64,000 nucleotides of DNA from Tubulanus polymorphus (Eukaryota; Animalia; Nemertea), in the NCBI RefSeq assembly GCF_964204645.1, contig NC_134026.1:14542150-14606149 (forward strand). Reading direction: 5' to 3'. Each line of letters begins with the position of its first letter. Position 1 is the stretch's first letter. Positions 1-43,370 of the stretch are shown piece after piece. Under the pieces are notes generated by a model. It saw only the letters and a list, made by a program, of their open reading frames with translations. It did not search any database and was not told the DNA's origin. Position numbers and translations under genes: made by a program.

Positions 1-3000
1 GCTATAATAAGTTGTTTACATCCAACAGAAGATATTACACATAGTTTTAGATTAACTCATTATAAACCATTTGAAAATAATTATAAGATAGATAAGTATC
101 CTGTTAGAATTAAAAACATCCCAAAAATAGAAAGAGATAATAATCTTAAAATAAATGTATTTGATTTAATTAAATTACCAAATACAAAAGGAAATAATAT
201 TAAACATTATACATTAGAACCTTTATACCTATCAAAAGATTATGATTCAAATGATGTTATAGATATACTATATTATGAGAATCATTATATGTGGATTAAA
301 CAAATAGATTTATTTTTCAAATCAGAAAATGATCACCATAAAATATATCTATGTAGAAAATGTTTACATAGATTCAGTAATGAAAGTACATTATTAAATC
401 ATAAACAACTATGTGATAATCATGATTATTGTAAATTAGTTTTACCAAATGAAAAAGATAAAATATTAGAATTCAAAAAATATGATTACAAAAATAAAGT
501 ACCATTTGTAATATATGGAGATTTTGAATCATTAAATAAAGAATTAACAGATAAAGATAGAAAAGATATATATTATAAAAGAAAGAAATTAAATTCTAAT
601 GAAAGTGATTATTCAGATGAACCACCAATAACAAATACTATTAAAAAGATTCATCAATCAGCTGCAGCTTTCGGGTTATATATTAAATCTAATTATCCAG
701 AACTAATCGAAAGTGAATATTATAATTATAGAAATGAAAATGTTATCAATCATTTTTGTGACTTATTAATTGAATATGAAATAAGATTTAGTAAATTATT
801 GAATACAAATAAAGAAATAATTATGACAGAAGAAGATAAAGAAGAATTTGAGTTTGCAGATAAATGTTATTATTGTGAAAAGATATTTAATTATAAAGAT
901 AAAAAAGTAAGAGACCATGATCATTTGAATGGAAAGTTTAGAGGCGCTGCACATGAGAATTGTAACTTACAAGCTAAGAAAATTAACTTTGTACCAGTTA
1001 TATTTCATAATCTATCGGGGTATGACGCGCATTTATTCATCAAACAGTTATGTCATAAAATAGAAGAAATCAATAATGAAATAGAAATATTAAATTCAAA
1101 TAGATCAAAAGATAAAATACCAACTTATAAATTTAGAATGTTAGCTAAAACATCTGAGAATTATATATCTTTCCAATTTGGATGCTTAAGATTTATAGAT
1201 TCATATAGATTTTTAAGTAGTTCATTAGATAACTTATCAAAATCATTAGTTGATGACGAATTAAAGATATTAAAAGAATATTACCCAAATAATGATGATT
1301 TTCAATTAATGAGATATAAAGGAGCAATTCCATATTCATTTTATAAATCACATAATGATTTTAAAATAACTGAATTATTGAAAGAACAATTTTATGATGA
1401 ATTAAAAAATGAATATGTAAAAGATGAAGTTTATAATAGAGCATTGAATATTTGGAATCATTTCGAAATTAAAAATCATGGGCAATTAGTAGATTTATAT
1501 TTAAAATCAGATGTATTATTATTAACCGATATATTCGAAAGGTTTAGAGATGTAAACCTAAAATATTTTAACATTGATCCTTGTCATTGTTATTCATCAC
1601 CAGGTTTAACATGGGATTGTGGTTTAAAATTTACAGATATAAAAATGGATTTGTTAACAAATATAGATCAATTACTATTATTTGAAAAATCTATAAGAGG
1701 AGGTGTTTCAGGTGTATTAGGTGATAGATATTTCAATGTAAATGATAATCCTGGATATAAATTATTATACATATATGCAAATAATCTTTATGGTTGGGCA
1801 ATGATGGAACCACAACCTTATGGGATGTTTGAAATAACTGAAGTTTTACAAATTGATAAATTTGATTGGAAGAAAAGAATTCTAGATATTGCAGATGATT
1901 CAGATACTGGTTACTTCTTCGTTGTAGATTTAGAATACCCTGAAAATATTAAATTCAAATCTAGAAATCTAGCATATTGTCCCGAACATAAAACTGTTAA
2001 ACATGAAGAATTATCAAATTATCAAAAAAGAATTAAACCCGATAATCATATTCATACTGAAAAGTTAATGGTAACTCAAGAAGATAAATATAATTACGTT
2101 GTGCATTATAGAATGTTGAAGTTTTATTTGAATCAAGGAATGATTCTAAAAGAAGTACATAGATATATTTCATTCAGTCAATCTAAATGGTTAGAAAAAT
2201 ATATAGATTTTAATACTACACAGAGAACTAAATCTAAAACTGATTTTGAAAAAGATTTCTTCAAACTAATGAATAATGCATTCTATGGTAAGACTTGTGA
2301 AAATATTAGAATTAGAAATGATATCGAGTTAGTCAGTAATGGTAAAAGAATTAGGCATTTACAATCATATCCTAAGTTTATAGGTAACAGAATATTTGAT
2401 GAAAATTTAGCAGCAGTTAAAATGAAAAGAACTTCAATGAAGTTCAATAAACCTATTTATGTTGGTGCCGCAGTTCTAGAAATTTCAAAATTCCTAATGT
2501 ATAAATTTTATTATAATATACTACAACCTCATTTTGGAGAAAAACACATAGAAATTCTATACTTTGATACCGACAGTTACATATTAAAGATAAAAACTGA
2601 TAACATAACAGATGATTTAAAAACATTAAAACATCATTTTGATTTTAGTAACTATCCTAAAAATCATGAATTGTTTAGCAATGATAATAAAAAAGTTCCT
2701 GGGAAGTTTAAGGATGAATTAGGTGGTGAAGAAATGATAGAGTTCATTGGTATTAGATCTAAAATGTATTCATATAAAACTAAAGAACATGAAGCTAAAA
2801 AGTTAAAAGGAATTACCAAAAGCGTTGTTGAAAAGAATATTCATTTCAAAGATTACATCAATTGTATATTTAATGAAGAAGTTAGAAAACATAAGATGAA
2901 ATGTTTAAGATCTGAAGATCATGAAATGTATATTGAAGAGATAGAGAAGATAAGTCTAAACCCATTTGATGATAAAAGATATATTTTAGATGATGGAATC

Positions 3001-3099
3001 CACACAGTCGCCTATGGTTGCAATTTAGATGAATATATAAAATTCAAAAGAGAAGAAACAAAAGAAAATGAGATTATGAAAAGGATTCTAGCGTGTTAA
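1..3099 (+). CDS. Protein-primed family B DNA polymerase (pPolB), 5'-partial
   Basis: Frame is open from base 1 (AIISCLHP...ENHYMWI). Motifs: exonuclease YGDFES and FHNLSGYDAH; endonuclease VII-like RDHDHLNGKFRGAAHENCN; KLMNNAFYGK; YFDTDS; KLKGI; DDKR. Motif A reads YIYANNLYG (catalytic Asp replaced by Tyr). Confidence 0.95.
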   Translation, partial: AIISCLHPTEDITHSFRLTHYKPFENNYKIDKYPVRIKNIPKIERDNNLKINVFDLIKLPNTKGNNIKHYTLEPLYLSKDYDSNDVIDILYYENHYMWIKQIDLFFKSENDHHKIYLCRKCLHRFSNESTLLNHKQLCDNHDYCKLVLPNEKDKILEFKKYDYKNKVPFVIYGDFESLNKELTDKDRKDIYYKRKKLNSNESDYSDEPPITNTIKKIHQSAAAFGLYIKSNYPELIESEYYNYRNENVINHFCDLLIEYEIRFSKLLNTNKEIIMTEEDKEEFEFADKCYYCEKIFNYKDKKVRDHDHLNGKFRGAAHENCNLQAKKINFVPVIFHNLSGYDAHLFIKQLCHKIEEINNEIEILNSNRSKDKIPTYKFRMLAKTSENYISFQFGCLRFIDSYRFLSSSLDNLSKSLVDDELKILKEYYPNNDDFQLMRYKGAIPYSFYKSHNDFKITELLKEQFYDELKNEYVKDEVYNRALNIWNHFEIKNHGQLVDLYLKSDVLLLTDIFERFRDVNLKYFNIDPCHCYSSPGLTWDCGLKFTDIKMDLLTNIDQLLLFEKSIRGGVSGVLGDRYFNVNDNPGYKLLYIYANNLYGWAMMEPQPYGMFEITEVLQIDKFDWKKRILDIADDSDTGYFFVVDLEYPENIKFKSRNLAYCPEHKTVKHEELSNYQKRIKPDNHIHTEKLMVTQEDKYNYVVHYRMLKFYLNQGMILKEVHRYISFSQSKWLEKYIDFNTTQRTKSKTDFEKDFFKLMNNAFYGKTCENIRIRNDIELVSNGKRIRHLQSYPKFIGNRIFDENLAAVKMKRTSMKFNKPIYVGAAVLEISKFLMYKFYYNILQPHFGEKHIEILYFDTDSYILKIKTDNITDDLKTLKHHFDFSNYPKNHELFSNDNKKVPGKFKDELGGEEMIEFIGIRSKMYSYKTKEHEAKKLKGITKSVVEKNIHFKDYINCIFNEEVRKHKMKCLRSEDHEMYIEEIEKISLNPFDDKRYILDDGIHTVAYGCNLDEYIKFKREETKENEIMKRILAC

Positions 3100-11399: not shown

Positions 11400-12647
11400 A
11401 TGAGTGGGAGTTATATCAATCCTTCTAAGAATCATAGAATATCTAATGCTATTAAAGCAGAAAGATCACATCATATAATTACTCATAACCCTTCTAATAT
11501 TAATCCTGATGAAACTTTATATGTTAGAATCCCTCGATTAACACAAAATACTTTTTATGTTCCAAATAGTATTTATTTATCAGCCGATATAAAAGTAATC
11601 GGTAATAATAATAATTATGTTGTTGATAATGTTGGAAGATATTTGATTAAAAAATTATCAATAAAGATTGGTCCAGAAACAGTTTTCTCATTAGATGATT
11701 ATAATTTATTTATGCATTATAAAGATTTATGGTTAACTAAAGAAAATAGAAATAATATGATATTTCAAGGAATCCAATCAGAAAACCAAAATAAATTAAG
11801 ATCAGAAGCACATAATGCAATATTAACTAATGCTATAGATAAATTGATAAAAAGTATATACGGAAGCAAATATAAAATTCCATTAGAGTTTGAATTGATA
11901 AATAATAATGCGCCTTTATATAAATACGCAATTCAAGAAGACGTTATATTCGAAATAACATTTGCTCCTGTAAATGAAATTGTAAGATCTAGCGTTAATA
12001 AAGATATGAGTTATAAATTATCGAATATATGTTTAGAATATGATACAGAAACTGATGAAAATATTTCAAGTATAATTCAAACTCAATACAATCAAGGATT
12101 TTTATTATCATATGATTATATTGATAAATTTAAAACTGTAACTATTAATACAAATGATGAAATAATTAATGAGAATATTAACTTCCCAAGAAGATCTATT
12201 AAAGGTATATTAATATTTTTTACCATTGCAACATATACTAATGGCGCAATAAATATTGATAATTATTATAATCCTGAAATAACAAAAGTAGAAATAACTA
12301 TCGAAGAAATAGCAAATAAAATATTTTGTCAAGGAATGAGAATGATAGATCAATGGGTAGAAATAAAAAAACATTTTATGAATGAAAAAGTAAAATCATT
12401 TGAAAATTGTAACATTAATCAAATTGATTATTATACCGGTAATAAATATGCATTATGGTTAGATTTTAGAACAACAGAGGATAATTCATTACATGGTTCT
12501 GGAAAAAAACTACAGAACACTAAAGATGGAATACAATTATTCATGACAAAGAATAAAGGAATCAAAAATTTTAAAATGCATATTTATATTATATCTGACG
12601 CGCAATTAAATATTGTAAATTCACAATTAGATAGTGTTATGTATTAA
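11400..12647 (+). CDS. Major capsid protein (double jelly-roll), intact ORF
   Basis: 415 aa, beta-rich (NPSNINPDETLYVRIP, YKIPL, LSNICLEYD, NINFPRRSIKGILIFF, YALWLDFR, LHGSG); size and position fit a Polinton MCP. Confidence 0.82.
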   Translation: MSGSYINPSKNHRISNAIKAERSHHIITHNPSNINPDETLYVRIPRLTQNTFYVPNSIYLSADIKVIGNNNNYVVDNVGRYLIKKLSIKIGPETVFSLDDYNLFMHYKDLWLTKENRNNMIFQGIQSENQNKLRSEAHNAILTNAIDKLIKSIYGSKYKIPLEFELINNNAPLYKYAIQEDVIFEITFAPVNEIVRSSVNKDMSYKLSNICLEYDTETDENISSIIQTQYNQGFLLSYDYIDKFKTVTINTNDEIINENINFPRRSIKGILIFFTIATYTNGAINIDNYYNPEITKVEITIEEIANKIFCQGMRMIDQWVEIKKHFMNEKVKSFENCNINQIDYYTGNKYALWLDFRTTEDNSLHGSGKKLQNTKDGIQLFMTKNKGIKNFKMHIYIISDAQLNIVNSQLDSVMY

Positions 12648-12679
12648 AATTTTAACTTTAATAAAAATATATATAATAA

Positions 12680-15030: not shown

Positions 15031-15521
15031 AATACAATGCTATAAGCTTATAATGCTATAAGTAGGTATATTTGTACTATATAATGTTATTGTTATATGT
15101 GTGTGCTTTGAATGGCGATGAACTATTAGGTATCATACAATTCTATCCATGTGTATCAGGTAAACAAATATATGTGCAATTTACTTACCCTGTTCAAATG
15201 AATGTTCCTGCCGCTTAATGAAATATTGCAGTTACACTGAAATTATATCATGTAGACATATTTAACCCTTCGATTAAAGCTAATATATGGCCTATACGAC
15301 ATGACCTAAAAAATAGGGAATGTATTGTTCTAGATCAAAGGTCGAAAGGTCGAGTGAGTAAAAAATTAAAAATTAAAAATTCTCGCACACTCGAATTTAT
15401 TTTTCATTTTTACTCTCTCAAGCTCTCAACATTTAATCTAGAACAACACATTCCCTATTACTCTTAAAATATTAATCTAATAACCTCTAAAATCAATTTT
15501 AATAAAAAATTTGATATTAAA

Positions 15522-15878
15522 ATGGAGAGTAGTAAACAAGTACACAGTGAGAACAACAAATCATTTCTAGATGGAATAAAAGATATCACAAATGCTAAAT
15601 CTGTAGATTATAAATTTAAGAAGTTAACAGAATTAACAATTCATAAGAAATATTTAATTACTAATATTGATACAGTTACTAACAAATATGGGGATAAATA
15701 AGTTATCCACTTAGAATATGAAGGATTAAAGGGAAATACATATAAATTCAGAACATATTTACCAGATAGATTTCATAGATTATCTAGTGAAGATTTAGAA
15801 GAATTATGTTCAGGTGATTTCTATTTCATATAAAAGGGTAAGAATGAAAAAAAGCACCATGAAATAGATTTCGAATAA
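15522..15878 (+). pseudogene. Copy of the 113-aa OB-like gene with internal stops
   Basis: Aligns with 3128-3469; in-frame TAA codons present. Confidence 0.8.
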
Positions 15879-15927
15879 AATATGTAAAATCAATTTTAAT
15901 AAAAAATTATGAAAAAAAAATATAAAA

Positions 15928-18696
15928 ATGGAAGCAAATAAGTACTACTGTTCAACATGTAAAATTCATATAGATAAATCTGAAAAAGCAAGACATAATA
16001 AAACTAAAACACATTTAGAGAATAAATTGAAATTAGAATATAAAGATGATATATTAGAAACTATATTAGATGAATTGAAGAATGAAAAAGAAACATACAA
16101 ATGTGACACATGTAATCAATCATTCAGCGACAAAAGATATTATAAAGAACATTTAAAATCTAAAAGTCATATTAGAAATATGAATAATGATATTTTAGGT
16201 GAAGATAATTTTGATAAAGATAATGATAAGAAACAGAAGACAATTAAAAGAATAAAAAATAAAATAAACAATAAAAGACGATACATGGAAGATGTAAGAA
16301 ATTATATTTATTCATTAGATAATAAAAAAGAAATAGAAATAACCGAAGCATTCAAAAGTGATATTGGACCAGCTGCTATTGAATTTAAATTTCATAAAGG
16401 TAAAACATTAGAAGAAAAAAAAAACATTTAGAAAATATGAAAAATATTATGAGAATAATTACTGATGTTGAATACCCTAGAATTAGTATATCTTCTTAAA
16501 GTTACATTCATAAAATCTGGAGATAAACCAATATATAATATAAATTCTCATTCACAAGATATTATATCTAAACAACATATAGCTGATAGATTAAATAAAT
16601 GTTATAATGAAATAAAAAGTAAAATAGAAGAGAAATATTTTGAAGGATCAGGTTTAATATTTGATGAAATAATATTTATGACTTTACATGTTTATAATGC
16701 AAAATATAATAAGTAAACTAAATCAAAACCAATTGATGAAAATAATTTATCATATTAAAAAGATGATAATATTAATGGATCAAGTTATATCAAATTACCA
16801 TTTAAAACTAATGCTGTTATAAATGTACAAAATTATGATGATAAATGTTTTCTATGGTCAATTATAAGTTGCTTACATCCTGCAACTGATAATATTTGTA
16901 GAGTATCAAATTATAAACCATTTGAAATTAATTATAAGATAGATAATTATCCTGTTAGAATTAAAAATATCCCAAAAGTAGAAAGAGATAATAATATAAA
17001 GATAAATGTATTTGATTTAGTCAAATTACCAAGAACAAAAGGGAATAATATAACCTCTATACTTAGCAAAGGATTATGATTCAAATGATGTCAGAGATAT
17101 ATTATATTATGAGAATCATTATATGTGGATAAAACGTATAACTAAATTCAGTAATGAAAGGGCATTATTAAATCATAAACAATTATGTGAAATCATGATT
17201 ATTGTAAAATAGTTTTACCAAATGAAAAGGATGAAATATTAGAATTCAATAAATATAATCACAAGAATAAAGTACCATGTGTAATATATGGAGATTTTGA
17301 ATCATTAAATAAAGAATTAACTGATCAAGATAGAAAAGAAATATATTAAAAAGAAAGAAATTAAATTCTAATGAGAATGAAAAGTAATTGATTATTCAGA
17401 TCCTCTAATAACAAATACTATTAAAAAGATTCATCAATCAGCTGCAGCTTTTGGATTATATATTAAATCTGATTATCCAGAACTAATTGAAAGTGAATAT
17501 TATCATTATAGAAATGAAAATGTTATCAATCATTTTTGGAACTTATTAATTGAGGATGAAATAAAATTTAATAAAAAGTTAAATGAAAATAAAGAAATAA
17601 TTATGACAGAAGAAGATAAAGAAGAATTTGAGTTTGCTGATAAATGTTATTATTGTGAAAAGATATTTAATTATAAAAACGTTAGAGACCATGATCATTT
17701 GAATGGAAAGGTTAGAGACGCAGCGCATGAGTATTGTAACTTACTTACAAGCTAAGAAAATTAACTTTGTACCAGTAATATTTCATAATTGATCAGGGTA
17801 TGATGCACATTTATTCATCAAACAGCTATGTCATAAAATAGGAGAAATCAATAATGAAATAGAAAGATTAAAATCAAATACATCAAAAGATAAAATATCA
17901 ACTTATAAATTTAAGATGTTAGCTAAAACATCTGAGAATTATATATCTTTCCAATTTGGGTATCTAAGATTTATAGATTCATATAGATTTTTAAGTAGTT
18001 CATTAGATAATCTATCAAAATCATTAGTTGATGATGAATTAAAAATCTAAAAAATTAAAACAACACTATCCAAATAATGAGGATTTTCAATTAATGAGAT
18101 ATAAAGGAGCAATTCCATATTCATTTTATAAATCACATAATGATTTCAATATAACTGAATTATTAAAAGAACAATTTTATGATGAATTAAAAAATGAGTA
18201 TGTTATAGATGAAGTATATAATAGAACATTGAATATTTGGAATCATTTTGGAATGAAAAATCATGGACAATTAGTAGATTTATATTTAAAATCAGATGTA
18301 TTATTATTAACTGATATATTTGAAAGGTTTAGAGATGTAAACCTAAAATATTTTAATATTGATCCATGTCATTGTGTTTCTAGTCCAGGTTTAACTTGGG
18401 ACTGTGGTTTAAAATTTACAGATATAAAAATGGATTTGTTAACAAATATAGATCAATTATTATTATTTGAAAAATCTATAAGAGGAGGAGTTTCAGGTGT
18501 ATTAGGTGATAGATATTTCAATGTAAATGGTAATCCCGGATACAAATTATTATATATGGGTGCAAATAATCTATATGGTTGGGCAATGATGGAACCTCAG
18601 CCTTATGGAGTATTTGAAATAACTGAAGTTTTACAACATGAAAATAATGATAGATTTGATTGGAAGAAAATAATTCTAGATATTGCAGATGATTCA
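15928..18696 (+). pseudogene. pPolB pseudogene: N-terminal zinc fingers, vOTU-like region, exonuclease and partial palm
   Basis: Two CxxC...H zinc fingers, EGSG, GSSYIKLP, INVQNYDDKCFLWSIISCLHP, ENHY; many stops and frameshifts; motif A reads YMGANNLYG. Confidence 0.88.
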
Positions 18697-19731
18697 GAGA
18701 CTAAAAAACTGTATGGCGCGCGTAGTAGAAAAAAAGATATGATAAAAACGCAGGGTTTCCTTGATCGTTACAAAATGTCCGTTACTCTTTATTGGGAAAG
18801 ATTGTAGCGTGTATCCGTACCAAGAAGAAAACATCAGGCGTGAAGCCCAAATGAGGAAGTTTAGAGGATTTCTGGTGCCATTTTTGTGCATTCCTATGTT
18901 ATCATGTGGTATTTGCCGTAATTAAAACTACCAGTTAGGAGTAGCGCCTGCCACATTCATTCATTCATTGAAGCATCGCACACAAAAAACACAGTGTCAT
19001 TGTGTGGACTATACCCCTATGGAAAATAGGGTAGGTAGGATGTCTGGGCAATTACACTACTTTGTAGGGAAGGTAGATGCACGCTTTTTATTATTGAAGA
19101 GATCGTTACATTGAAATAAACTAAAAAGAACACTAAAATGTCTTTAGAGAACAAATAATCAATTTATTTTCACAATTCCAACAAGGATTTTTCAGGATTT
19201 GGTGAAAATAGGACCACTTTTGCCAGGGGGAAAATATTTATTAACGGTTAAAAAAAGAGCTCACATAACCCGTGGAAACGTGAAAGTTTGAAAATTCCGT
19301 AGACGGCGGCTTTATAGCGGCAGTTCTCCGGGTCTATTCGTGACATTGGAGAGTAGAATTAATAACAAGATTTCCGGTGCCAACTGGTTGTAAATAGTGT
19401 CATTAATTTTACTTGAGTCGGTACTACCGCTACGCAAAATCAGCTGTAGTAGTTCGCAATGCGTTCCCTCACTCGCGTCGACCGGGCGTCGTGGGCGTAT
19501 TTCCACATACCAGACCATGGGCGTGTCATATCAAAAACATTCCATGCAGTTATCAAAAATGTTCGATGATAGACGTTGTTGACATAGTATAGTGAATGTA
19601 CATGTACGTGTATTAGGTATTTTATTTTATGCGTTTTCAAGGGAACACTATGTATTTACCAAGAATGAGCTTATCTATTCACGATACAAATTGAAATAAT
19701 ATAATATCTAAATCATCATTGTATATTACAG

Positions 19732-19907
19732 GTGCTGAAGTTGGAATAAGTACATCGCGTATTCATGCCAGAGGTCCTGTCGGTGTTGATGGTCTGTTGA
19801 CTACTAAATGGCAACTGGTAGGAACTGGACAGACTGTTGCTGATTTCAATGATGGAAAAATTTCATACCTTCACCATCGACTTCCTAATGTTGATGATAG
19901 CTCTTAA
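19732..19907 (+). CDS. ALDH18A1: Last coding exon of delta-1-pyrroline-5-carboxylate synthase (gamma-glutamyl phosphate reductase C-terminus)
   Basis: Acceptor tattacag|GT, then (G)[26 protein letters not shown]...YLH, the conserved animal P5CS C-terminus; TAA stop and AATAAA ~60 bp downstream. Confidence 0.9.
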
Positions 19908-20587
19908 ATTCTATTGAGATGGTACCATACTACTTCCCTAAGAAACCGACGGTCACTCCGTTCCGCGTAATAAAAATAGCAATCTTATCCGTTAAAGCCT
20001 ATCGTTACAATTGATCAGTCACCATAATCGTCCTGGAGAAGAGAGAGCCCTTTCGGTTACTTAAGGAATATGATTTAGATATAACGGTTTCGTTTAGGTT
20101 TAATCATCTTGCGTTTGACATCGATGAAACCGTAGTTTATTTTAACGAAGCTAACAAAATATCGGCGTTTTCAAATATCCGGTATGGGTATTCCAAGTCA
20201 CAGCAAGGATCCATACAATACGAAAGTCTTACTCTGACTTAATTTTAGAAGCTATTTATATCTCACATAAACTAGACATGTTTAAGACATGCCTTACACA
20301 TTCTCAAAGAAAATGACGAGTACAACTACTCCGAAACAGATGGCAAATTGTTGTACAAACAGTGACCAAATACTATCAAGTCGATGCTCACTCAAGTAAA
20401 ACGTTCACTGTCTCCAGTTAGTGACAACAAAGAAGATATAACACAAAATACAAACAGATACCCATTAAACAAATAACAGCTTGAAATTAATAATCATATA
20501 TAATGCTAGATCATATCTGGGCCAACTACACTATACTCCCCCATTGACCGTCTCGACGTTTACGTGTACTCGCTGAAATGCCTCAAA

Positions 20588-20742
20588 CATAAAGTTGAAA
20601 ACCAGAGGTCCTCGATTATTTGATACCATTAAACGCTTTATTCACTATCACAAAACACCATTGATCACGCAACAATTACCCACACGACCTTGACCTAAGT
20701 TCTATTGTCAGTCACCACTAAAGCACGGAGCAGAACATTACA
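20588..20742 (-). repeat. 3' LTR of the Gypsy (Mag-like) element
   Basis: 155 bp, 7 differences from 55301-55455; begins TG on the minus strand after purine tract AGGGGTGGA. Confidence 0.88.
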
Positions 20743-20920
20743 TCCACCCCTAAGCAGATATTAAGTAAATGATTAATTACTATAATGCTTTAACGGTCTA
20801 AATGCAGATCCTTTTTTAAAATACAATTAAAACAATCAAACCAAACTTAAATTGTATAAGGGCAACAAATAAAACTACAGAATTAACACAGCATTAGATC
20901 TAATCAAATTATCATAACGT

Positions 20921-22321
20921 TTACAAAACACTACAAGGCAATTTAACTGGAGCTATTCTGATTCTGGTAGATCTTCGCAAAGCGGGTGCGGTTATCATAG
21001 TCCCTTTCTTACGCGATATTGTGAGTGGCACTATTTCATACGGAGTGTTGCCTTTCATCATATTGAACGGCCTTCTCACAAGTACATTGTCGCCGATTTC
21101 GAGGTTGCCTGGTTTGACATAATTCTTACATTCCGCATATTCTTTAATTTTTGCCTTTTGCGCCGTGTCATGCTTCATAATTAAATCCGCAATTGTGTCG
21201 TGTTCCGGAAGCCGAGGAAGCTTGTTCCTTACACCCCTTTTCAGAAAGAGGGTAGCAGGCGCAACACCGGTTGTGCAGTGAGGAGCAGTGCGATAGCTCT
21301 TGAGGAAAGCTTCAAGAGCCTTCTTCTAGTTCTCCCCGGCAGCCTTTGCCACCTTCACATGCTTCTTAAGAGTCTTTACGAAATTCTCAACCTCGCCGTT
21401 GGCTGGTGGCCACAATGGCATTACTTTACGGCGACGGAAGGATAACACGTGGGCAAAGTAAGCAAACTCACTGCCATTAAACGGCGGACCGTTATCCGAT
21501 TTCACTGTCCCCGGAGCACCGAACATCGCAAATATTTTATCAAGTTTCGGGATCACGGCAGGTGCGCTAGTACTACTGACCGGTTCCACGAACGGGTAAC
21601 GCGAATAATCATCTATCAAGATCATGACTGTTTCACCGTTGATACTGGCGAAGTCGACGCTGGTTTCCTCGAACGGCGCATTCGGTAAAATAGTCATTCG
21701 GATTGGTTCTCGAACAGTAACTGGCGTAGCGATTTGACACGGAAGACACGATTTGACTCTCTGCTCGACTAGTTTGTTCATAAGAGGGAACCAGACCTTC
21801 TCCCTAAGCAAGGCTTTGGTTTTCACGATTCCCATGTGCCCTTCGTGTGCAATTTCGATAGTCTTTGACTGTAAGGCCGCTGGAATGACGATTCGATTTG
21901 ATTTTAGGAGTAGAGAGTCATGACACGTAAGCTCCACTTTAACCTGTTCATAACGCGCGCGAGTTCTGACGCAGAGACTTCTGGTGGCAGGTCGTACCAC
22001 CGTCCAGTCCTTACTGCAGCGCAAACTGCTTGCAGCACTGGATCGTCAGCTGTGGTATCCTTCACTTCTTGCAGAGTCATAGCCCTGGGTATAGCATTGT
22101 ATGCGACATACGCGACATTCAGCACAGTTTTTATCTCCGCTTATCTCTGCATCGACAGGGTGCCTGGATGCATAATCAGCTGGATTTGTCTTTCCAGGCT
22201 GATATTCAACTACAAAGCGATATCATTGTAACTCCATCAGCCATCTTTCTATCCTGGCTGAAGGTTTTGAGGTCGGGTTGTTATAAAGCGACACGAGAGG
22301 TTGATGGTCGGTTACAATGGT
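20921..22321 (-). pseudogene. Gypsy pol: end of RNase H and integrase
   Basis: TIVTDHQPL; H-x-x-H...C-x-x-C (AHEGHMG...CLPCQ); IDDYSRYP; SDNGPPF; ANGEVE. Confidence 0.9.
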
Positions 22322-22670
22322 AGTAATAGGGAATAAGTTGTTTCATACCAAAGGTCGAAGGGTCGAGCTCACTCTCCCCTTCAACCTTTGACATGAAACA
22401 ACTTATTCCCTATAACTCTAATAGTATTCATATATATGAACATTACTTACATGAATTTCATATATTTGAAAATAAATTATGAATTATTTTTATATTAATC
22501 ATAAAATGTGAGTAAAGTGTGAAATAAGATAGAAATTAACGATTAATTAACGAGTTGATCAAAATTAGATTTTTTTCACATTAAAGTGTGAGTTAAGTGT
22601 GAGAAATAATTCATATTTTAACGTTGAATATTTATATTTGAATGAGTTTTAATAAATGTTTTGTTATAAA

Positions 22671-23300
22671 ATGAACACAGAAGAAGAAGAAACGATATTC
22701 AAAATCGAAATCAATGAAACCATAAATTATTTTCATTGTTTAACATTAAAAATTATATCTCAGCAACAAATTTAGAGTATGGAAGACAATATAAAATCGA
22801 TAGTATTACAATGATTAATCAAATATCATTAAAGGAAACTTATTTAATCACTGAACTTGTCGATACTTTAGATAATGGCGCCAAAAATCCTAAAATATTT
22901 AATACAGTTTTAAATTGTGAAGGTAATTTAGATGAAAACATAATAAATATACTTCAAACTCCTTTCAATGAAATAGATAGTGATTTGATACTTTCTAAAA
23001 GTTACAATGATTTGATTAACTTAAGAATTGAAAAAAGACAATTATATTAGTTCAATTTTGATAATAAACAAATTATCTATAGTGCAAATTCATCAAATAT
23101 TGGCATTCAATGTGAATCATTTAATGAAAATTCATCAAATATTGGAATTCAATGTAATTTTGATGATGAATTTAAAAATTTTAACCCTAATGAAAAAGTG
23201 TATTGTTATTGCGGAGGTAAATATTTAAAATCACATAAATCAAAACATTATCAAACAGTTAGACATATCGAATATGGAAAGAATAATAATTCTATATTGA
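22671..23300 (+). pseudogene. Decayed mini-element ORF ending in a CxCG...H-x5-H zinc finger
   Basis: ATG at 22671, ORF 22736-23050, then EKVYCYCGGKYLKSHKSKHYQTVRH. Confidence 0.5.
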
Positions 23301-23479
23301 AATAAGATTAAGCTGTATGTTTCAAGTATATAGTAGTTAAAGCATTGAGAAATTTGTTAATGAATAACTGTAAGGTAGTAAGTATAATTGCTATTTGATT
23401 TGAAACATATAAAAGTTAAATATCTTAAGCATATAAATCAAATTACTTATCAATCTTTTAATTTGTTTTCTTCAAATAA

Positions 23480-23671
23480 ATGGATCGTTTCATCACGACT
23501 GGGAAAAGTGATTTGAAACATTATTTAGTTGCAGGAGAATTAATTTTGGTCGCGCTTTTCTTTTACTATGAAAATATCAGTAAGGATCTAATAAATGAAA
23601 ATATAAAATTGAGCAAGAAATTAAAGAAGTTAAATGTAAATAATCATAAAAATAATCATAAAAAAAGTTAA
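23480..23671 (+). CDS. Small single-TM protein of the mini-element
   Basis: TAAATG start; hydrophobic LVAGELILVALFFYY. Confidence 0.4.
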   Translation: MDRFITTGKSDLKHYLVAGELILVALFFYYENISKDLINENIKLSKKLKKLNVNNHKNNHKKS

Positions 23672-25224
23672 TATTGAATCAGTTTTGTGAGTTAATCTTA
23701 TAAATAAATGAGTGAAAATTTATTAAATTCATTACACCTTATTTACAGAAATGAACCTTAAATGAATATTAAATCAATTATTATGCTTACAGGATTAGTT
23801 TCTTAAACATATATATAAAACAGTTGTTAGAATTCTATGATAATTGCAAAATTAGATACGCTGAATTAAAAGATAATATCAATTATCTATCAGATAGAAT
23901 TAATAATATTAAGTGTTGTGAAAAATGTAATAAAAGATATAAAAATGAAATCATTAAGAAATCATAAATATATTCATGAATTAGATGAAAAATTACATGA
24001 ATCAAAATAAGAAATTAGACTGTTAAATTGGTTGAAAATATAAGATATATTAGTTGAATATATGAAATATTGTATGAAATATTAGTTAATCAAAAAGGGG
24101 GGTTTTAGGTATTAATGGTATTAAATACGTATTAATGGTATTAAATACATATTATGCTTTATTTCTGAAATAATTGAAGTCACAGAAGTAATTTATTTTT
24201 TAATTTATTCATATATGATATTGTAATTCTTTACATTTGACCTGGATAATACAATAGCGATATTAGTTAGTTGGTTTATTCAAATAGAAAAATATTAAAA
24301 TAATACAAGAGTGATATTAGCAGTTAAATCTTTTTGATTTCTTTTTAAATCTAGTCAATTCTTTTTAACCAATAGCGTGAATAGAAATAAAAAGATTTAA
24401 ATAAAAAAAACAATAAGTTACTTTATCTTATACTAAGTTATTTTACTTATTGTTTTTTTAGTTTACAGTTTTAATAGAAAAATATTGAAATAATACAAGA
24501 GTGATATTAGCGGTTAAATCTTTTTGATTTCTGTTCACGCTATTGGTTAAAAAGAATTGACTGAATTTAAAAAGAAATCAAAAAGATTTAACCGCTAATA
24601 TCACTCTTGTATTATTTCAATATTTTTCTATTAAAACTGTATTAGATATTTTAGGATTTTTGGCGCCATTATCTAAAGTATCGACAAGTTCAGTAATTAA
24701 ATATGTTCCCTTTAATGATATTTGATAAATCATTGTAATACTATCGATTTTATATTGTCTTCCATACTCTAAATTTGTTGCTGAGATATAATTTTTAATG
24801 TTAAATAATGAAAATAATTCATTGGTTTCATTGATTTCGATTTTGAATATCGGTTCTTCTTCTTCTATGTTTATTTTATAACAAAACTTTTATTAAAACT
24901 CATTCAAATATAAATATTCAATGTTAAAATATGAATTATTTCTCACACTTAACTCACACTTTTATGTTAAAAAATCTAATTTTAATCAACTCGTTAATTA
25001 CTCGTTAATTTCTATTTTATTTCACACTTTACTCACACTTTACTCACATTTTTATGATTAATATAAAAATGATTCATAATTTATTTTCAAATATATGACA
25101 TTCATGTAAATAATATTCATATTATTAGAGTAATAGGGAATAATTTGTTTCATATCAAAGGTTGAAGGGGGGAGTGAGCTCGACCCTTCGACCTTTGGTA
25201 TGAAACAACTTATTCCCTATTACT

Positions 25225-25664
25225 AATGTTGAACTCCTTTCATACAAGTAAAGGTGGAAACGCCTGACGGACCAGTAAATGGCGAGCGCTTCGCGATCAA
25301 TTTGCGGATATCGAGCCTCGGTCGCTGACAGAGGATGACTCGCGAAGTGTATCGGAGTTATCACATTACGATTAGGTTCTTTCTGGGCAAGAACTGCGCC
25401 AAGCCCGATCGGACTGCCATCTACATACAGGATTGTCTGTTTTCCGGGATCGAAATAACCCAAAATGGTTTTGGCAGATAGGGCAGCTTTTAAGTTGATC
25501 CAAGGCCAACTGCGTCAATTTCCGTAGCGGTCTGGTAATGAGCGCGAAATCTTTGATGAATCGAGAACAGAACGCTGCGGAACTAAGGAGGCTACGAATC
25601 TCTGTTACGTTGGTCGGTGAAGAGATTGCAAGTCATCTACCTTACGAGAGTCAGGTGAGATACC
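25225..25664 (-). pseudogene. Gypsy pol fragment: end of RT and RNase H
   Basis: GISPD.RKV, YFDP, VDGSPIGLGAVLAQ, YPQIDREALAI, FHLYLY. Confidence 0.88.
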
Positions 25665-26131
25665 AGTAATAGGGGTAATAGGCTTTCAGATCAAAGGTCG
25701 AAAGGTCGAGCTCATAAAAAATGAAAAAATATGAAAATAACAATAATTTCTATTTGAATTAGTAGCAAAACTCATAAAAAATGAAAAATAATTCTCGCAC
25801 GCTCGAATTTATTTTTCATTTTTTATGAGTTTCACTCCTATTACCCCTATTACTCTTAAAATATTCATATATATGGATAATATATATATGAATAACATTT
25901 AAATTGACAGATTATTCAATATAAATTAAGTGTTAGTAAAAAAGTAACGAGTAATTAACGAGCTCTTATATAATATATAGATAGATATATTTACAACATT
26001 ATTTCAATATTTATATTTGTATGAGTTAGATTTTTAAACATTAAAAGTGTTAGTAAAGTGTGATTGAAATAATACATGATATAAATCATTGAACTTCTAA
26101 AATCAATTTCGTAAAAAAATATGTATAATAA

Positions 26132-26800
26132 ATGGAATCAGAACACAGAACAACCACAAACTATAAATATTACACTGGTGTTATAAATATATACTACAAG
26201 AAGTGTTCTAAATGTGATTTAGATAAATTAGCTTTAACAGAATTTAGTAAGCGTAAGATTAGCAAAGATGGTTTTCAATATTGCTGTAAAACTTGTACTA
26301 AACTATATACCAAACAATATCGAGAAGATAATATAGAACATTATAATTATTATATGGCAGAATATATGAGAGAAAGATATCAAACAGATCTTAATTTTAG
26401 ATTGAAACAATGCTTAAGGACTAGATTAACACAATTATTCAACTAAGAAATACATTCAGAAACACTATCTAATTTATTGGGTTGTTCAGATGAATTCTTA
26501 AAATCATGGATAATATATCAATTCGATGATAAAATGAATATAGATAATTATGGTGAATACTTTCATATTGATCACGTGATGCCGATTTCTAAATTTGACA
26601 TGAGTGATGATTATAATAAGAAGCTAATCTGGAACTGGAGAAATTTAAGGCCTTTAGAAAAGAAAGAAAATATAATTAAATCTAACAAACTAGATATGAA
26701 ATTATATTTAGATCAACTGGATAAAGAAAAGACATTTGTTGAATTATGGAATAGTATTTCACAGAATCAACCGCATTCTGAGGTTTTAATCAGTGGTTAG
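26132..26800 (+). pseudogene. HNH-type endonuclease with N-terminal CxxC zinc motifs (giant-virus-like), one internal stop
   Basis: CSKC...CKTC, LGCS, HIDHVMP, NLRPL...EN..K. ORFs 26132-26446 and 26477-26800 are in the same frame, split by one TAA. Confidence 0.75.
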
Positions 26801-29765: not shown

Positions 29766-30844
29766 ATGAAAAAAGAACAATATTTAAGAGATTTATATTA
29801 CAACCCAGAAAGTGAAGTATCATATTCTAACGTTTCAGAATTATGGAATAAAATTAAATCTGATAATGAAAATGGTAATATAAAATATAGTGAATTAAAA
29901 TCATGGTTACAAAATCAACCAACATATCAAATCCACAAGAAAATGGATAAAACTTATTTTACAAGAAAAGTTAAGGTTTCATATATCGATCAACAATGGC
30001 AAGCAGATTTAATTGACATGAAGAACTTAGAAGAATACAACAAAGGATATTTCTGGATATTAAATGTTATAGATATATTCAGTAGATATGCATGGTCAAT
30101 TCCAATCAAAAATAAAACTGGTATAGAAGTAACAAATGCTTTTAAATCTATATTTAAAGAAGCTATTCCAGATAAGATACAATTTGATGAAGGTAAAGAA
30201 TTTTATAACAAACATTTAAAAAAACTATTATCTGATAACGATGTAGATTATTTTCAACACATTCAGATAAAAAAGCATCTAATATAGAAAGATTTAATAA
30301 AACATAGAAAACTAGAATGTGGAAATATTTTACTGCTAATGAAACATATAAATATATCGATGTGTTAGATGATTTAGTGAAAGGTTATAATAATTCTAAA
30401 CATAGTTCTATAAATATGAAACCTATACAAGCTAGAAAAGAAGATAATTCGGAAATAGTTTGGAATAATTTATATGGAGCATTTGTTACACATGATTTCG
30501 GAGAACCTAAATTTAACAACACAATATCTAAATATAGAAAAACCTTTTATAAAGGTTATACCCCTAATTTTACAGAAGAAATATTTAAGATTAAAAAGAT
30601 AATATTAACTAAACCTTTTGTTTATAAATTAGAAGATTTAAAAGATGAAGAAATATTAGGTTATTTCTATGAACAAGAATTATCACTTGTACCAAATCCA
30701 GATGAAATAGAATACAAAATAGAAAAAGTATTGAGAACAAAAACTCTTAAAGGAAAAAAGTATTCTTTGGTGAAATATAAAGGATATGATGATAAATTTA
30801 ATGAATGGATTTTATCTAGTAAAATTAAAAGAATAAATGAATAA
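29766..30844 (+). pseudogene. Retroviral-like (rve) integrase with C-terminal chromodomain, frameshifted
   Basis: WQADLIDM, IDIFSRYAW, FDEGKEF, IERFN, YNNSKHSSI, FYEQEL; chromodomain YKIEKVL...LVKYKGYDDKFNEWI. Confidence 0.93.
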
Positions 30845-31452
30845 AGATTTATTTATATTTGAACCGCATAATATGTTAGTTACTGATGTAACCAATTGTG
30901 GTAAAACACATTTCATATTAGATTTGTTAGAAACTATTTATAAGAATCATTTTGATAATATGATATTATTCTGTCCTACTTATGAAATGAATCAAACATA
31001 TAATAGAGATATAGTTAAAATAAAAAAGTGTATTATATTAGATCCTAAAACAGTAAAAGAAAATTTAGATAATTGTATAAAAATAGCAATTGATACTTAT
31101 AAAGGATCAAATACATTATTCATTATAGATGATTGCGCAAATTTACATGATTCAAAAGTAAGAGAAAGTGAGTTATGTTATTTAGCTTTCTCTTGAAGAC
31201 ATTTCGGGATAACAACATGGGTTTTAAATCAAAAATATAATTCAATTGTTAAAGACTTTAGGGAGAATATAAGATTTCTAGTTTTATTCTACAATAAAGA
31301 TAGAAAATTTATGCAACAATCATTGGAAGAAAATCACATTATACCTACTGAATTACATGATGAATATATGAATATATAAATTAAAGAATAATAAATGTTC
31401 AAAATTATTACTGAGACTACAATTTCCATATGAATATAAATTTATAAAATAA
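30837..31452 (+). pseudogene. A32/FtsK-like DNA packaging ATPase
   Basis: Degenerate Walker A (DVTNCGKT), Walker B LFIIDD, then S*RH (TGA in place of the SGRH Gly); the frame continues past 31196. Confidence 0.88.
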
Positions 31453-31795: not shown

Positions 31796-32683
31796 TCAAC
31801 CTTTATTACTTTTTGAGTTAAATATAATTAATATCTTAATCACTTTCACCATCAGACCCCCTAACAATTTATTCAAATGCTCTATCGAATCTTCTTCTAA
31901 TCCTTCATTATTTTTATACTTATTCTTCACCCTTTTTACCGCATCATCAATAGTTGTTTCATTGTTATGCTTATTCATCCAATCAAATTTATCATTATTT
32001 TCTACTTTATGTTACATAGAATCTTTATTATCAATATCTGTAACTATATTTTCATTATTATCTTTATTAGTGTTTGCTCCTAATATTTCATTTACAATGT
32101 TTGATCCTAATATTTTATTAGCATCGGTTAAATCTAATTCATCTTTATTAGGTGTTGCTAATAATAAATGTTCATATAATTGTTTACCATTTACTTTTTT
32201 ATTTGAAACAAACTTTGTAACATATCTAAATGGGTGTTCTATAAATTCTCTTAAACCAACACGTTCTATAACATTAGTAATATGTACCTTTGTATTCATA
32301 TGTTTATTCCAATTTGATGGAGCGTTTGAAAATTCACCTTTACAATAATCACAAAAATTTCTTTTTTCACTAATATTTAATATTATTTCATTATTTGATG
32401 TAGAAGGTATTACATTATTAGATGTAGAAGGTATTACATTATTAGATGTAGAAGGTATTTCATTATTAGATGTAGAAGGTATTACATTATTATCAATTAC
32501 ATTATTTAAATTATCAACAACTTAACTTTTATTATTATCTATTTCTATTAGTTTAGTTTTATAAATTTTGAAAATAGGATCAAATATCAAAGCTATATTA
32601 CAAGGTATTATATGATATAAACCATCATTATTTTCATGTGTATCGATGTATGGAATATGGTTATATACTTTACCTCCTTCCAT
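31796..32683 (-). pseudogene. Decayed ORF downstream of MCP with a 21-bp repeat and CDYC...H zinc finger
   Basis: TAAATG start at 32683; TTAGATGTAGAAGGTATTACA x4 at ~32396-32490; FCDYCKGEF...HMNTKVH. Confidence 0.55.
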
Positions 32684-33963
32684 TTATTATATAAATGTTT
32701 ATTAAAGTTAAAATTTTGATTCATAACACTATTTAATTGAGAATTTACAATATTTAGTTGTGCGTCAGATATAATATAAATGTGCATTTTAAAATTTTTG
32801 ATTCCTTTATTCTTTGTCATGAATAATTGTATTCCATCTTTAGTGTTTTGTAATTTTTTTCCAGAACCATGTAATGAATTATCCTCTGTTGTTCTAAAAT
32901 CTAACCATAATGCATATTTATTGCCGGTATAATAATCAATTTGATTAATATTACAATTTTCAGATGATTTTACTTTTTCATTCATAAAATGTTTTCTAAT
33001 TTCTGGCCATTGATCAATCATTCTCATTCCTTGACAAAATATTTTATTTGCTATTTCTTCGATAGTTATTTCTACTTTTGTTATTTCAGGATTATAATAA
33101 TTATCAATATTTATTGCGCCATTAGTATATGTTGCAATGGTAAAAAATATTAATATACCTTTAATAGATCTTCTTGGGAAGTTAATATTCTCATTAATTA
33201 TTTCATCATTTGTATTAATAGTTACAGTTTTAAATTTATCAATATAATCATATGATAATAAAAATCCTTGATTGTATTGAGTTTGAATTATACTTGAAAT
33301 ATTTTCATCAGTTTCTGTATCATATTCTAAACATATATTCGATAATTTATAACTCATATCTTTATTAACGCTAGATCTTACAATTTCATTTACAGGAGCA
33401 AATGTTATTTCGAATATAACGTCTTCTTGAATTGCGTATTTATATAAAGGCGCATTATTATTTATCAATTCAAACTCTAATGGAATTTTATATTTGCTTC
33501 CGTATATACTTTTTATCAATTTATCTATAGCATTAGTTAATATTGCATTATGTGCTTCTGATCTTAATTTATTTTGGTTTTCTGATTGGATTCCTTGAAA
33601 TATCATATTATTTCTATTTTCTTTAGTTAACCATAAATCTTTATAATGCATAAATAAATTATAATCATCTAATGAGAAAACTGTTTCTGGACCAATCTTT
33701 ATTGATAATTTTTTAATCAAATATCTTCCAACATTATCAACAACATAATTATTATTATTACCGATTACTTTTATATCGGCTGATAAATAAATACTATTTG
33801 GAACATAAAAAGTATTTTGTGTTAATCGAGGGATTCTAACATATAAAGTTTCATCAGGATTAATATTAGAAGGGTTATGAGTAATTATATGATGTGATCT
33901 TTCTGCTTTAATAGCATTAGATATTCTATGATTCTTAGAAGGATTGATATAACTCCCACTCAT
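32608..33963 (-). CDS. Major capsid protein, copy B (stop codon lost, 36-aa extension)
   Basis: Near-identical to 11400-12647; TATTAA changed to AATCAA removes the stop. Confidence 0.82.
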   Translation of the reverse strand: MSGSYINPSKNHRISNAIKAERSHHIITHNPSNINPDETLYVRIPRLTQNTFYVPNSIYLSADIKVIGNNNNYVVDNVGRYLIKKLSIKIGPETVFSLDDYNLFMHYKDLWLTKENRNNMIFQGIQSENQNKLRSEAHNAILTNAIDKLIKSIYGSKYKIPLEFELINNNAPLYKYAIQEDVIFEITFAPVNEIVRSSVNKDMSYKLSNICLEYDTETDENISSIIQTQYNQGFLLSYDYIDKFKTVTINTNDEIINENINFPRRSIKGILIFFTIATYTNGAINIDNYYNPEITKVEITIEEIANKIFCQGMRMIDQWPEIRKHFMNEKVKSSENCNINQIDYYTGNKYALWLDFRTTEDNSLHGSGKKLQNTKDGIQLFMTKNKGIKNFKMHIYIISDAQLNIVNSQLNSVMNQNFNFNKHLYNKWKEVKYITIFHTSIHMKIMMVYII

Positions 33964-39448: not shown

Positions 39449-42400
39449 TTAACACGTTAGAATTCTTTTCATTATCTCGTTCTCTTTTGTTTGTTCTCTT
39501 TTAAATTTTAAGTATTCATCTAAATTACAACCATAAGCAACTGTATGAATTCCATCATCTAAAATATATATTTTATCATCAAATGGGTTTAGACAAATCT
39601 TTTCAATTTCTTCAATAAACATTTCATGATCTTCAGATCTTAAACATCCCATCTTATGTTTTCTAACTTCTTCATTGAATATACAATTGATGTAATCTTT
39701 GAAATGAATATTCTTTTCTACTACACTTTTGGTTATTCCTTTTAACTTTTTAGCTTCATGTTCTTTAGTTTTATATGAATACATTTTAGATCTAATACCT
39801 ATGAACTCTATAATTTCTTCACCACCTAATTCATCCTTAAACTTCCCTGGAACTTTTTTATTATCATTGCTAAACAATTCATGATCTTTAGGATAGTTAC
39901 TAAAATCAAAATGATGTTTTAATGTTTTTAAATCATCTGTTATGTTATTAGTTTTTATCTTTAATATGTAACTGTCAGTATCAAAATATAATATTTCTAT
40001 ATGTTTTTCTCCAAAAAGTGGTTGTAATACATTATAATAGAATTCATACATTAGTAATTTTGATAATTCTAAAACTGAAGCGCCAACATAGATTGGTTTA
40101 TTAAATTTCATTGATGTTCTTCTCATCTTAACTGCGGCTAAATTTTCATCAAATATTCTGTTACCAATGAACTTAGGATATGTTTGTAAATGCCTTATCC
40201 TTTTACCATTACTAACTAACTCAATATCATTTCTATTTCTAATATTTTCACAAGTCTTACCATAGAATGCATTATTCATTAACTTGAAGAAATCTTTCTC
40301 GATATCAGTTTTAGCTTCAGTTCTCTGTTTGGTGTTAAAATCTATATATTTTTCTAACCACTTAGATTGACTGAATGAAATATATCTACGTACTTTTTTT
40401 AGAACCATTCCTTGTTTTAGATAAAACTTTAACATTCTATAATGTACTACATAATTATATTTATCTTCCTGAGTTACCATTAACTTTTCTGTATGAATAT
40501 GATTTTCGGGTTTAATTCTTTTTTGATAATTTGATAATTCTTCATGAGTTACAGTTTTATGTTCTGGACAGTATGCTAGATTTCTAGATTTAAATTTAAT
40601 ATGTTCAGGATATTCCAAGTCTACAACAAAAAAGTAACCAGTATCTGAATCATCTGCAATATCTAGAATTATTTTCTTCCAATCAAATTTGTCATTATTT
40701 TCATGTTGTAAAACTTCACTTATTTCAAATACTCCATAAGGTTGTGGTTCCATCATTGCCCAACCATAAAAATTATTTGCATCTATATATAATAACTTAT
40801 ATCCAGGGTTATCATTTACATCGAAATATCTATCACCTAATACACCTGAAACTCCTCCTCTTATAGATTTTTCAAATAATAATAATTGATCTATATTTGT
40901 TAATAAATCCATTTTTATATCTGTAAATTTTAATCCACAATCCCATGTTAAACCTGGACTTGAATAACAATGACAAGGATCAATATTGAAATATTTTAGG
41001 TTTACATCTCTAAACCTTTCGAATATATCGGTTAATAATAATACATCTGATTTTAGATATAAATCTACTAATTGCCCATGATTTTTCATTCTAAAATGAT
41101 TCCAAATATTCAATGTTCTATTATATACTTCATCTTTAACATATTCATTTTTTAATTCATCATAGAATTGTTCTTTTAATAATTCAGTTATATTAAAATC
41201 ATTATGTGATTTATAAAATGAATATGGAATTGCGCCTTTATATCTCATTAATTCAAAATCATCATTATTTGGGTAGTGTTGCTTTAATATTTTTAATTCA
41301 TCATCAACTAATGATTTTGATAAGTTATCTAATGAACTATTTAAAAATCTATATGAATCTATAAATCTTAGGCAACCAAATTGGAATGATATATAATTCT
41401 CAGATGTTTTAGCTAACATTCTAAATTTATAAGTTGGTATTTTATCTTTTGATCTATTTGAATTTAATCTTTCTATTTCATTATTGATTTCTTCTATTTT
41501 ATGGCATAACTGTTTGATGAATAAATGCGCATCATATTCTGATAGATTATGAAATATAACTGGTACAAAGTTAATTTTCTTAGCTTGTAAGTTACAGTTC
41601 TCATGTGCAGCGCCTCTAAACTTTCCCGTTCAAATGATCATGGTCTCTTACTTTTTTATCTCTAAAATTAAATATCTTTTCACAATAATAACATTTATCT
41701 GTAAACACAAATTCTTCTTCTTCTGTCATAATTATTTTTTTATTTTTATTTAACTTTTCATAAAATTTTATTTCATATTCAATTAATAAGTCACAAAAAT
41801 GATTAATACCATTTTCATTTCTATAATGATAATATTCACTTTCAATTAGTTCTGGATAATCAGATTTAATATATAACCCGAAAGCAGCAGCTGATTGATG
41901 AATCTTTTTAATAGTATTTGTTTTTGGTGGTTCTTCTGAAAAATCATTTTCATTAGAATTTAATTTCTTTCTTTTATAATATATTTCTTTTCTATCTTGA
42001 TCAGTTAATTCTTTATTTGATGATTCAAAATCTCCATATATGACAAATGGAACTTTATTTTTGTAATCATATTTTTTGAATTCTAATATTTTATCCTTTT
42101 CATTTGGTAAAACTAATTTACAATAATCATGATTTTCACATAATTGTTTATGATTTAATAATGCACTTTCAGTTCTCAATTTATGTAAACATTTTCTACA
42201 TAGATATATTTTATTATCAAAATCATTTTCTGATTTAAAAAATAAATCAATTCTTTTAATCCACATATAATGATTCTCATAATATAATATATCTATAACA
42301 TCGTTTGAATCATAATCTTTTGATAGGTATAAAGGTTCTAATGTATAATCTTTTATATTGTTACCTTTTGTATTTGGTAATTTGATTGAATCAAATACAT

Positions 42401-43293: not shown

Positions 43294-43370
43294 TTTAATA
43301 CTAAATTTTTTGTTAAAATTGATTTTAGAAGTTCAATGATTTATATTTTATTCATATATATGAATACTTT

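Follow-up and report, generated by a model that had tools for sequence, protein, structure and literature searches.

How the ends of a DNA element that encodes its own protein-primed polymerase come to be built as hairpins is the question raised by a 64,000-nucleotide stretch of the nemertean Tubulanus polymorphus (NCBI RefSeq assembly GCF_964204645.1, contig NC_134026.1, positions 14,542,150 to 14,606,149 of the forward strand). This stretch, hereafter the window, is numbered from its first letter and holds three related copies of a Polinton/Maverick element, with genes for a protein-primed family B polymerase (pPolB), an integrase, an ATPase and a capsid protein. A first-pass annotation, made from the letters alone, had claimed that every intact Polinton end here is a long fold-back hairpin, and had proposed self-priming with hairpin resolution, or a doubled integrase site, as the cause. 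To our knowledge, neither the exit of a Polinton from the chromosome nor the start of its replication has ever been shown. The reading that we prefer, and to which we give about an even chance, is that these ends are protein-primed, that the strand ending 3' at the tip folds back to act as a local origin or as a repair template, and that the two arms are kept matched by template switching.

The four stretches were found at the coordinates and with the motifs that had been claimed. E1 (15312..15462, plus strand) is a 151-nt terminal palindrome at the left end of a rearranged, truncated Polinton copy and lacks its first three bases, AGT; E2 (22322..22417, plus strand, ending TAACT) and E3 (25129..25224, minus strand) are terminal palindromes of 96 nt; and E4 (25665..25854, plus strand) is the left end of a Polinton of about 17.7 kb. 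Folded as single-stranded DNA, the four ends yielded -34 to -43 kcal/mol (z -10.6 to -13.5). A terminal decamer lies on both arms in 4/4 ends, on the plus strand at 22322, 25129 and 25665 and on the minus strand at 15453, 22408 (one mismatch), 25215 and 25845. The palindrome is flush with the tip, the 3' base is paired and interior sequence follows directly, which is a parvovirus-like geometry. All four ends fold, and the claim that every intact end is a long hairpin stands with some qualifications. In E4 only 18 bp pair flush at the tip (25665-25682 with 25837-25854), with a second, separate stem further in. The palindrome is missing from a fifth end, on the right side of the 17.7-kb element near 43367, where the break falls about 6 nt short of the expected end of the inner arm and no target-site duplication (TSD) is present.

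E2 and E3 are moreover the terminal inverted repeats (TIRs) of a single non-autonomous element of 2.9 kb, bounded by 22322 and 25224, and the window therefore holds three independent arm types rather than four. The left TIR (22322..22913, plus strand) and the right TIR (24631..25224, minus strand) are 92% identical, begin with AG and are 592 bp long. The element sits between consecutive parts of the region encoding RNase H in a Ty3/Gypsy pol gene, where its 6-bp TSD copies (22316..22321 and 25225..25230, both plus strand) agree at 5/6 bases. From the tip inwards the TIRs differ at 0/46, 4/50 and 45/509 positions; the identity of the outer 46 nt (22322-22367 against 25179-25224), compared with 45/509 deeper in, has p ~0.014 if decay is uniform. 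Since integrated copies carry the entire palindrome as a duplex flanked by a TSD, the ends were open at insertion, which bears on any comparison with the covalently closed hairpin telomeres of poxviruses and N15.

All ends share one register, in which the decamer occupies positions 1-10, a spacer of 16 nt positions 11-26 and a conserved box positions 27-46. The arms differ between elements and still pair with their own partners, as had been claimed. E1 and E2 differ at 6/16 spacer positions and E4 differs from the others at 9/16, whereas the two arms of one end differ at 1/16 in E1, E2 and E3. Spacer changes between E1 and E2 are mirrored on the opposite arm in 5/6 cases (p ~3e-5 under independent mutation) and those between E4 and E2 in 7/7 cases over the paired part (p ~6e-5, likewise). 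The earlier description of hairpin ends with mirrored arms is supported, and so is the idea that the structure is maintained or regenerated. By itself, this covariation is no proof of selection, because template switching alone creates and perfects stems and makes mirrored changes (PMC8794818). As a side observation, within 25665-25682 the terminal motif of E4 is repeated directly at the start of the spacer, an arrangement that slippage in protein-primed initiation would give.

The box behaves differently from the spacer. Its pattern was matched six times in the 64 kb and never in 100 shuffles; four matches are exact and lie on outer arms (15335-15354 in E1, 22348-22367 in E2, 25179-25198 in E3 and 25691-25710 in E4), and two, with three mismatches, lie on inner arms. 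Outer-arm boxes differ from each other at 0-2/20 positions, while the two arms of one end differ at 4-6/20. The first-pass annotation was thus right that the box is kept on the outer arm, and incomplete in that the inner copy is degenerate while the spacer beside it remains matched: the box is intact solely on the outer arm, and the arms otherwise change together. The degenerate inner boxes lie at 15417-15436 (E1), 22372-22391 (E2) and 25155-25174 (E3), and E4 has none. In these copies GGTCGA becomes GGTTGA or similar, and all five changes seen at inner-box CpG sites (two in E1, one in E2/E3 and two in the relative L001, described below) run in one direction. The box itself (25691-25710, and 183-202 in another relative, L004) consists of two GGTCGA half-sites in direct orientation, 2 nt apart, and may resemble a nuclear-receptor half-site pair.

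The mismatches that remain between arms are also biased by strand. A transition mismatch between two arms can form a G-T wobble on one strand only, and in every case this is the strand that ends 3' at the tip (E1 5:0, E2 3:0, E3 2:0 shared with E2, E4 1:0 and the relative L096 2:0), against 11:7 in six control palindromes. Counted as distinct events the ratio is 10:0 (p 0.002), or 6:0 when likely private changes are left out (p 0.03); compared with the controls, Fisher's test gave p 0.03. Whether it arose through selection for pairing or through deamination of exposed DNA, the bias would indicate that the 3' end is single-stranded. No account of a box live outside and dead inside, or of such a strand bias, was found in the literature searched, from which subscription journals and Repbase were excluded.

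Relatives make it possible to tell the box from the palindrome. From 120 loci fetched with a polymerase alignment, an end could be read in four (L001, L004, L096 and, tentatively, L069, whose palindrome is subterminal); palindromes near the contig starts of L042, L049 and L046 carry no recognisable AG tip and served only as controls or were left out. L001 encodes P0003, a polymerase 80% identical to that of the window; its sequence starts inside the loop, and its inner arm bears a doubly degenerate box in the same register. In L004 (63% to P0003) the tip is AGT, the 26-nt register is unchanged and the box differs at 3/20 positions, and a terminal palindrome is missing. L096 (35%) has a flush palindrome of 129 nt that starts AGTAGT, with a perfect stem of 19 bp, and no such box. 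A box without a palindrome in one and a palindrome without the box in the other make the two separable; judging by these sequences, the box with its register looks like a signal, and the palindrome recurs or persists across the clade. The absence of a palindrome from L004 means that the hairpin is dispensable in the clade or that this copy is a derivative. L096 is a Polinton end with pPolB in a contig of a metagenome-assembled genome titled Nitrosopumilus sp., probably through contamination by host-animal DNA, and 17 other contigs of prokaryotic bins carry such polymerases. Exact end patterns gave no match in viral_contigs or metagenome_contigs, and a search with a single polymerase returned no viral locus.

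These data bear on a neutral explanation, in which the palindrome is a functionless scar left by snap-back during protein-primed initiation, with arms made alike by template switching of the quasi-palindrome type. Nothing but the decamer and box of the outer arm would then count, and the inner box would simply decay at its CpGs. L004, with box and register and no terminal palindrome, fits this explanation, as do the CpG sites at which the inner box degenerates and the capacity of template switching to build and perfect stems unaided (PMC8794818). The same 2.9-kb element also contains nested internal fold-back duplications without any role (24283..24641, no strand assigned), next to the right TIR, one of them with perfect 69-bp arms at 24464-24641 and z -20. 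They are likely template-switch scars, and their freshness indicates that template switching happens here. A neutral scar is harder to reconcile with five inner-box CpG changes that all run in the same direction, with arm mismatches that favour the 3' strand 10:0, with homogenisation that spares exactly the box, and with flush palindromes that persist at 80% and 35% polymerase identity. We regard it as possible but unlikely.

Sequencing reads extend the picture to the whole family. A search found four runs of two studies, and run X4, of raw DNA with the same species label, was read to 12%. Depth was about 3900 on the E4 box, which makes the family a high-copy one, compared with about 15-25 on the retroelement next to it, which may itself be present in several copies. 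Heterogeneous host flanks pile up at the outer base of the palindromes (1788+523 reads at 25664-25665 and 620 at 25224, the outer base of E3). The first host-flank bases at these two places lean to a short palindromic pattern resembling the TSD, a hint of a weak integrase target preference. Loose ends occur inside E4 at 25728 (331 reads) and at 25840 (313 reads), and each is the exact reverse complement of the other, from which it follows that the matched arms of many copies are longer than those of E4; a joint of 25665 to 25882 (155 reads) is what the inner arms of such longer copies would give and is no sign of flipping. About 150 reads link the inner-arm side of E3 to its outer-arm side across other loops. 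A further spacer type occurs on outer arms (317 reads), and in 50 reads an inner arm that continues into interior DNA carries a related spacer. The private base of E3 in its inner spacer is read as the pairing base in 74/89 reads, and for the diagnostic base of the box no variant of at least 2% was listed on either arm. Opposite-strand joints at the centre of the E3 hairpin (3-7 reads each) were not counted as evidence, as they may be library fold-backs.

Another explanation is the doubled integrase or excision site, in which the palindrome would be extruded as a cruciform, or would present the integrase with a pair of end motifs to bind for excision or insertion. The terminal decamer on both arms in 4/4 ends and the one window end that breaks about 6 nt from the inner boundary are in its favour. 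Host junctions, however, are concentrated at the outer AGT. Depth at E3's inner boundary is about 88, of which 42 reads continue into the interior; flipped ends or inner-boundary insertions therefore amount to at most 46 of 319 junction reads (≤14%), compared with 273 at the outer base at 92% likeness, and this boundary is absent from the six most frequent loose ends of the E3 reads, which were listed ahead of 40 others. No TSD accompanies the break at 43367, the box on the inner arm is degenerate, and the wobble bias implies a single strand and not a two-armed cruciform. A doubled site is accordingly very improbable.

The identity that had been assigned to the family stands on several independent features. 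Pfam DNA_pol_B_2, the protein-primed family B polymerase domain, was found in three copies, together with an integrase (Pfam rve), an A32-type ATPase (Pfam Pox_A32) and a 415-aa open reading frame (ORF) at 11400 that folds as a double jelly roll (model pLDDT 88.9; match to the PBCV-1 capsid with Z 27.8 and root-mean-square deviation (rmsd) 3.6 over 356 aligned residues); a PDB sequence search with this capsid protein gave no match. Polintons/Mavericks, whose animal forms are the adintoviruses, likewise combine pPolB bearing a terminal-protein (TP) and vOTU N-terminus, an rve integrase, an A32 ATPase and a double jelly-roll capsid, and have two convergent gene blocks, TIRs starting AGT, a 6-bp TSD and a length of about 17.7 kb (PMC8097293, PMC8502044, PMC11161782); between 25665 and about 43367 the window shows a Maverick's size and its layout in two blocks (PMC8097293). 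No Pfam match to an adenovirus-type maturation protease (adenain) was obtained among 45 ORFs, in copies that are broken and with shorter ORFs outside the scan. The family is a capsid-encoding Polinton/Maverick, and its ends are a variant end structure of a member of that group: Polintons are not known to have flush palindromes of 96-190 nt with an asymmetric box, and the tip here reads AGTAAT instead of (AGT)2.

The polymerase lineage appears to have kept the equipment for protein priming. Full-length relatives are about 1360 aa long, and a model was made of the first 500 residues of P0003. Residues 150-266 of the model match the little-finger/PAD fold of Y-family polymerases (Z 8.3, rmsd 3.0, 103 aligned) and residues 300-415 match OTU proteases (Z 7.7, rmsd 2.8, 92 aligned), a pair of folds described as the signature of TP-vOTU (PMC11161782). 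The predicted priming Ser-Gly is present in 87/90 aligned proteins and in two window copies, the vOTU catalytic Cys in 89/90 and the His in 90/90. On this model and alignment, the lineage retains a terminal-protein domain with a predicted priming Ser and a vOTU domain with both catalytic residues.

This result weighs directly on hairpin self-priming, in which an excised single strand uses its 3' hairpin as the primer for synthesis of the second strand, and the end thus closed is then resolved. Candidate openers would be the EndoVII-like domain present in pPolB, a free HNH protein or the integrase, and the box would provide one-sided resolution as at the left end of minute virus of mice (MVM), or would leave flop ends non-integrating through a dead outer box. 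The geometry is that of a parvoviral inverted terminal repeat (ITR), with the 3' base paired flush and interior sequence behind it; the wobble bias points to the 3' strand; in MVM an asymmetric arm directs a single active origin (PMC1185569); and the same model has been proposed for palindromic ends of virophages as well as polinton-like viruses (PLVs; bioRxiv 10.64898/2026.07.28.741278). Yet TP and vOTU are retained here, whereas the published palindromes go preferentially with elements lacking pPolB. A Pfam scan of the 45 ORFs, which come from no complete element, found no HUH initiator of the Rep/NS1 kind; the reads bound flop ends at 46/319; and full copying of the hairpin would not in itself match the arms. 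The EndoVII-like domain was rejected as a hairpin-specific resolvase, since its motif occurs in 110/121 proteins, the palindrome-less L004 included, and does not track the hairpin. Flip and flop are not present in equal amounts among integrated ends, unlike in resolution of the adeno-associated virus type, although the scarcity of flop in integrated copies is no bar to flop in free DNA. Self-priming with resolution as the replication mode is for these reasons not favoured, and we consider it rather unlikely. Less probable still is a hybrid cycle, in which the 3' hairpin self-primes conversion of the excised strand, protein priming amplifies it, and the live-outside, dead-inside box makes resolution or integration one-sided; if true, it would place a parvovirus-like origin switch inside a protein-primed DNA virus, in the animal Polintons of this clade.

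In the preferred reading, by comparison, the decamer, fixed 16-nt spacer and box would form an origin or attachment signal older than the palindrome and independent of it. The palindrome would have arisen when a protein-primed strand, still being made, turned back and used itself as template as far as the protein-linked 5' tip, which would make it flush. Recurrent template switches would then copy one arm onto the other, giving multi-base mirrored changes. Selection may preserve a working hairpin on the single strand that ends 3', which would give a displaced or excised strand a local duplex origin again and would template the repair of lost terminal bases; selection may also hold the inner box inactive and so prevent the inner arm from serving as another origin or end for integration.

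Several points weigh against this reading. The G-T bias was noticed post hoc, comprises 6-10 events from four elements and could reflect single-strand deamination and not selection. Most of the inner arm is lost in E4, and L004, with vOTU and EndoVII motifs, has no terminal palindrome. A flush 3' hairpin is also a good self-primer, and protein priming would face competition from it. The model of the TP fold is that of a relative, with Z near 8, the caution limit of the tool, and a Foldseek search with the N-terminal model gave no match with E <0.001, nearly all listed matches being Y-family polymerases. The read tables are unphased and placed by best match, which makes arm-specific allele counts partly circular.

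In adenovirus, the ITR origin consists of a terminal core with a protein-binding box at a fixed distance, and displaced strands re-form a duplex origin when the two ITRs pair over a long range as a panhandle, whereas in the present element either end could fold alone. Streptomyces telomeres (Tap/Tpg) likewise are protein-primed ends with a terminal palindrome and offer a tested case of fold-back repair, in which clipped 3' ends are restored by fold-back extension (PMC5449611). They are bacterial, combine an internal origin with end patching, have a 13-nt palindrome and use unrelated proteins, and so serve as an analogy of working only. The MVM left end shares the flush 3' hairpin and arm asymmetry and retains a single orientation, but parvoviruses need an NS1/Rep HUH nickase and a single-stranded genome, whereas the element here encodes its own protein-primed polymerase (PMC1185569).

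For this virus group, one report of terminal palindromes was found in the literature searched, which excluded subscription journals and Repbase: endogenous virophages and PLV subtype 4 of Halocafeteria seosinensis carry them in TIRs next to the TSD, preferentially with replication genes other than pPolB, and hairpin priming was proposed (bioRxiv 10.64898/2026.07.28.741278). In the present animal Polinton the palindrome accompanies a pPolB that bears a TP; the main-text section of that report makes no mention of covarying arms, an asymmetric box or a bias between strands, and its supplements may hold pPolB-bearing cases. The strings "hairpin" and "palindrom" do not occur in three papers on animal Polintons (PMC8097293, PMC8502044, PMC10748475). 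Casposon TIRs have internal palindromes, a preprint on entomopoxviruses and PLVs mentions hairpins only for poxviruses, and the 34 mentions of "hairpin" in bioRxiv 10.1101/2022.05.25.493380 are protein beta-hairpins and not DNA ends. The present ends suggest that terminal palindromes are compatible with an intact, predicted protein-primer, unlike in the published protist cases. They also offer a compact test of oligonucleotide size, whose parts are the tip, the spacer of fixed length, a box that may bind a protein and is conserved as far as a hairpin-less relative, and a fold-back that apparently matters on the 3' strand only, and they separate three models, namely local panhandle or repair, self-priming, and neutral scar.

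Other parts of the window belong to the bodies of these elements. The E1 copy (15463..18807, plus strand) has a small ORF followed by a broken pPolB gene, with zinc fingers, a terminal-protein loop motif at 16642, a vOTU Cys motif at 16837 and an EndoVII-like motif at 17684, and is cut off by other retroelement DNA. E4 is adjoined by a broken HNH-like ORF (26132..26800, plus strand; weak GmrSD_C match, E 0.017, below cut-off). Behind it lie a retroviral-like integrase split in two ORFs (29766..30844, plus strand; rve at 29766-30287, with a chromodomain behind), a fragment of the A32-type packaging ATPase (30837..31196, plus strand; E 4e-5, above cut-off), the major capsid protein gene (32608..33963, minus strand), which matches the copy at 11400-12647 with 97.6% DNA identity, a broken pPolB gene (39449..43293, minus strand; terminal-protein loop motif at 42579) and the right end region (43294..43367, minus strand), where interior sequence is present and the terminal palindrome missing. 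In the third copy (1-13040), a pPolB frame is open from the window edge (1..3099, plus strand; vOTU His motif and EndoVII-like domain) and the capsid ORF is intact (11400..12647, plus strand); its capsid block is internally duplicated, about 10003-12756 repeating 6791-9914.

In two copies pPolB is followed by a small conserved ORF (for example at 3128-3469), which precedes it in the E1 copy (15524-15820) and in L001 (338-714); its position ahead of pPolB in both suggests that the E1 gene order may be native and not rearranged. The 2.9-kb element retains the junction sequence of the convergent gene blocks (matching 31494-31798). Palindromic repeats of other repeat families were also observed at 43756-43852 and 58260-58433 (z -8.4 and -7.0).

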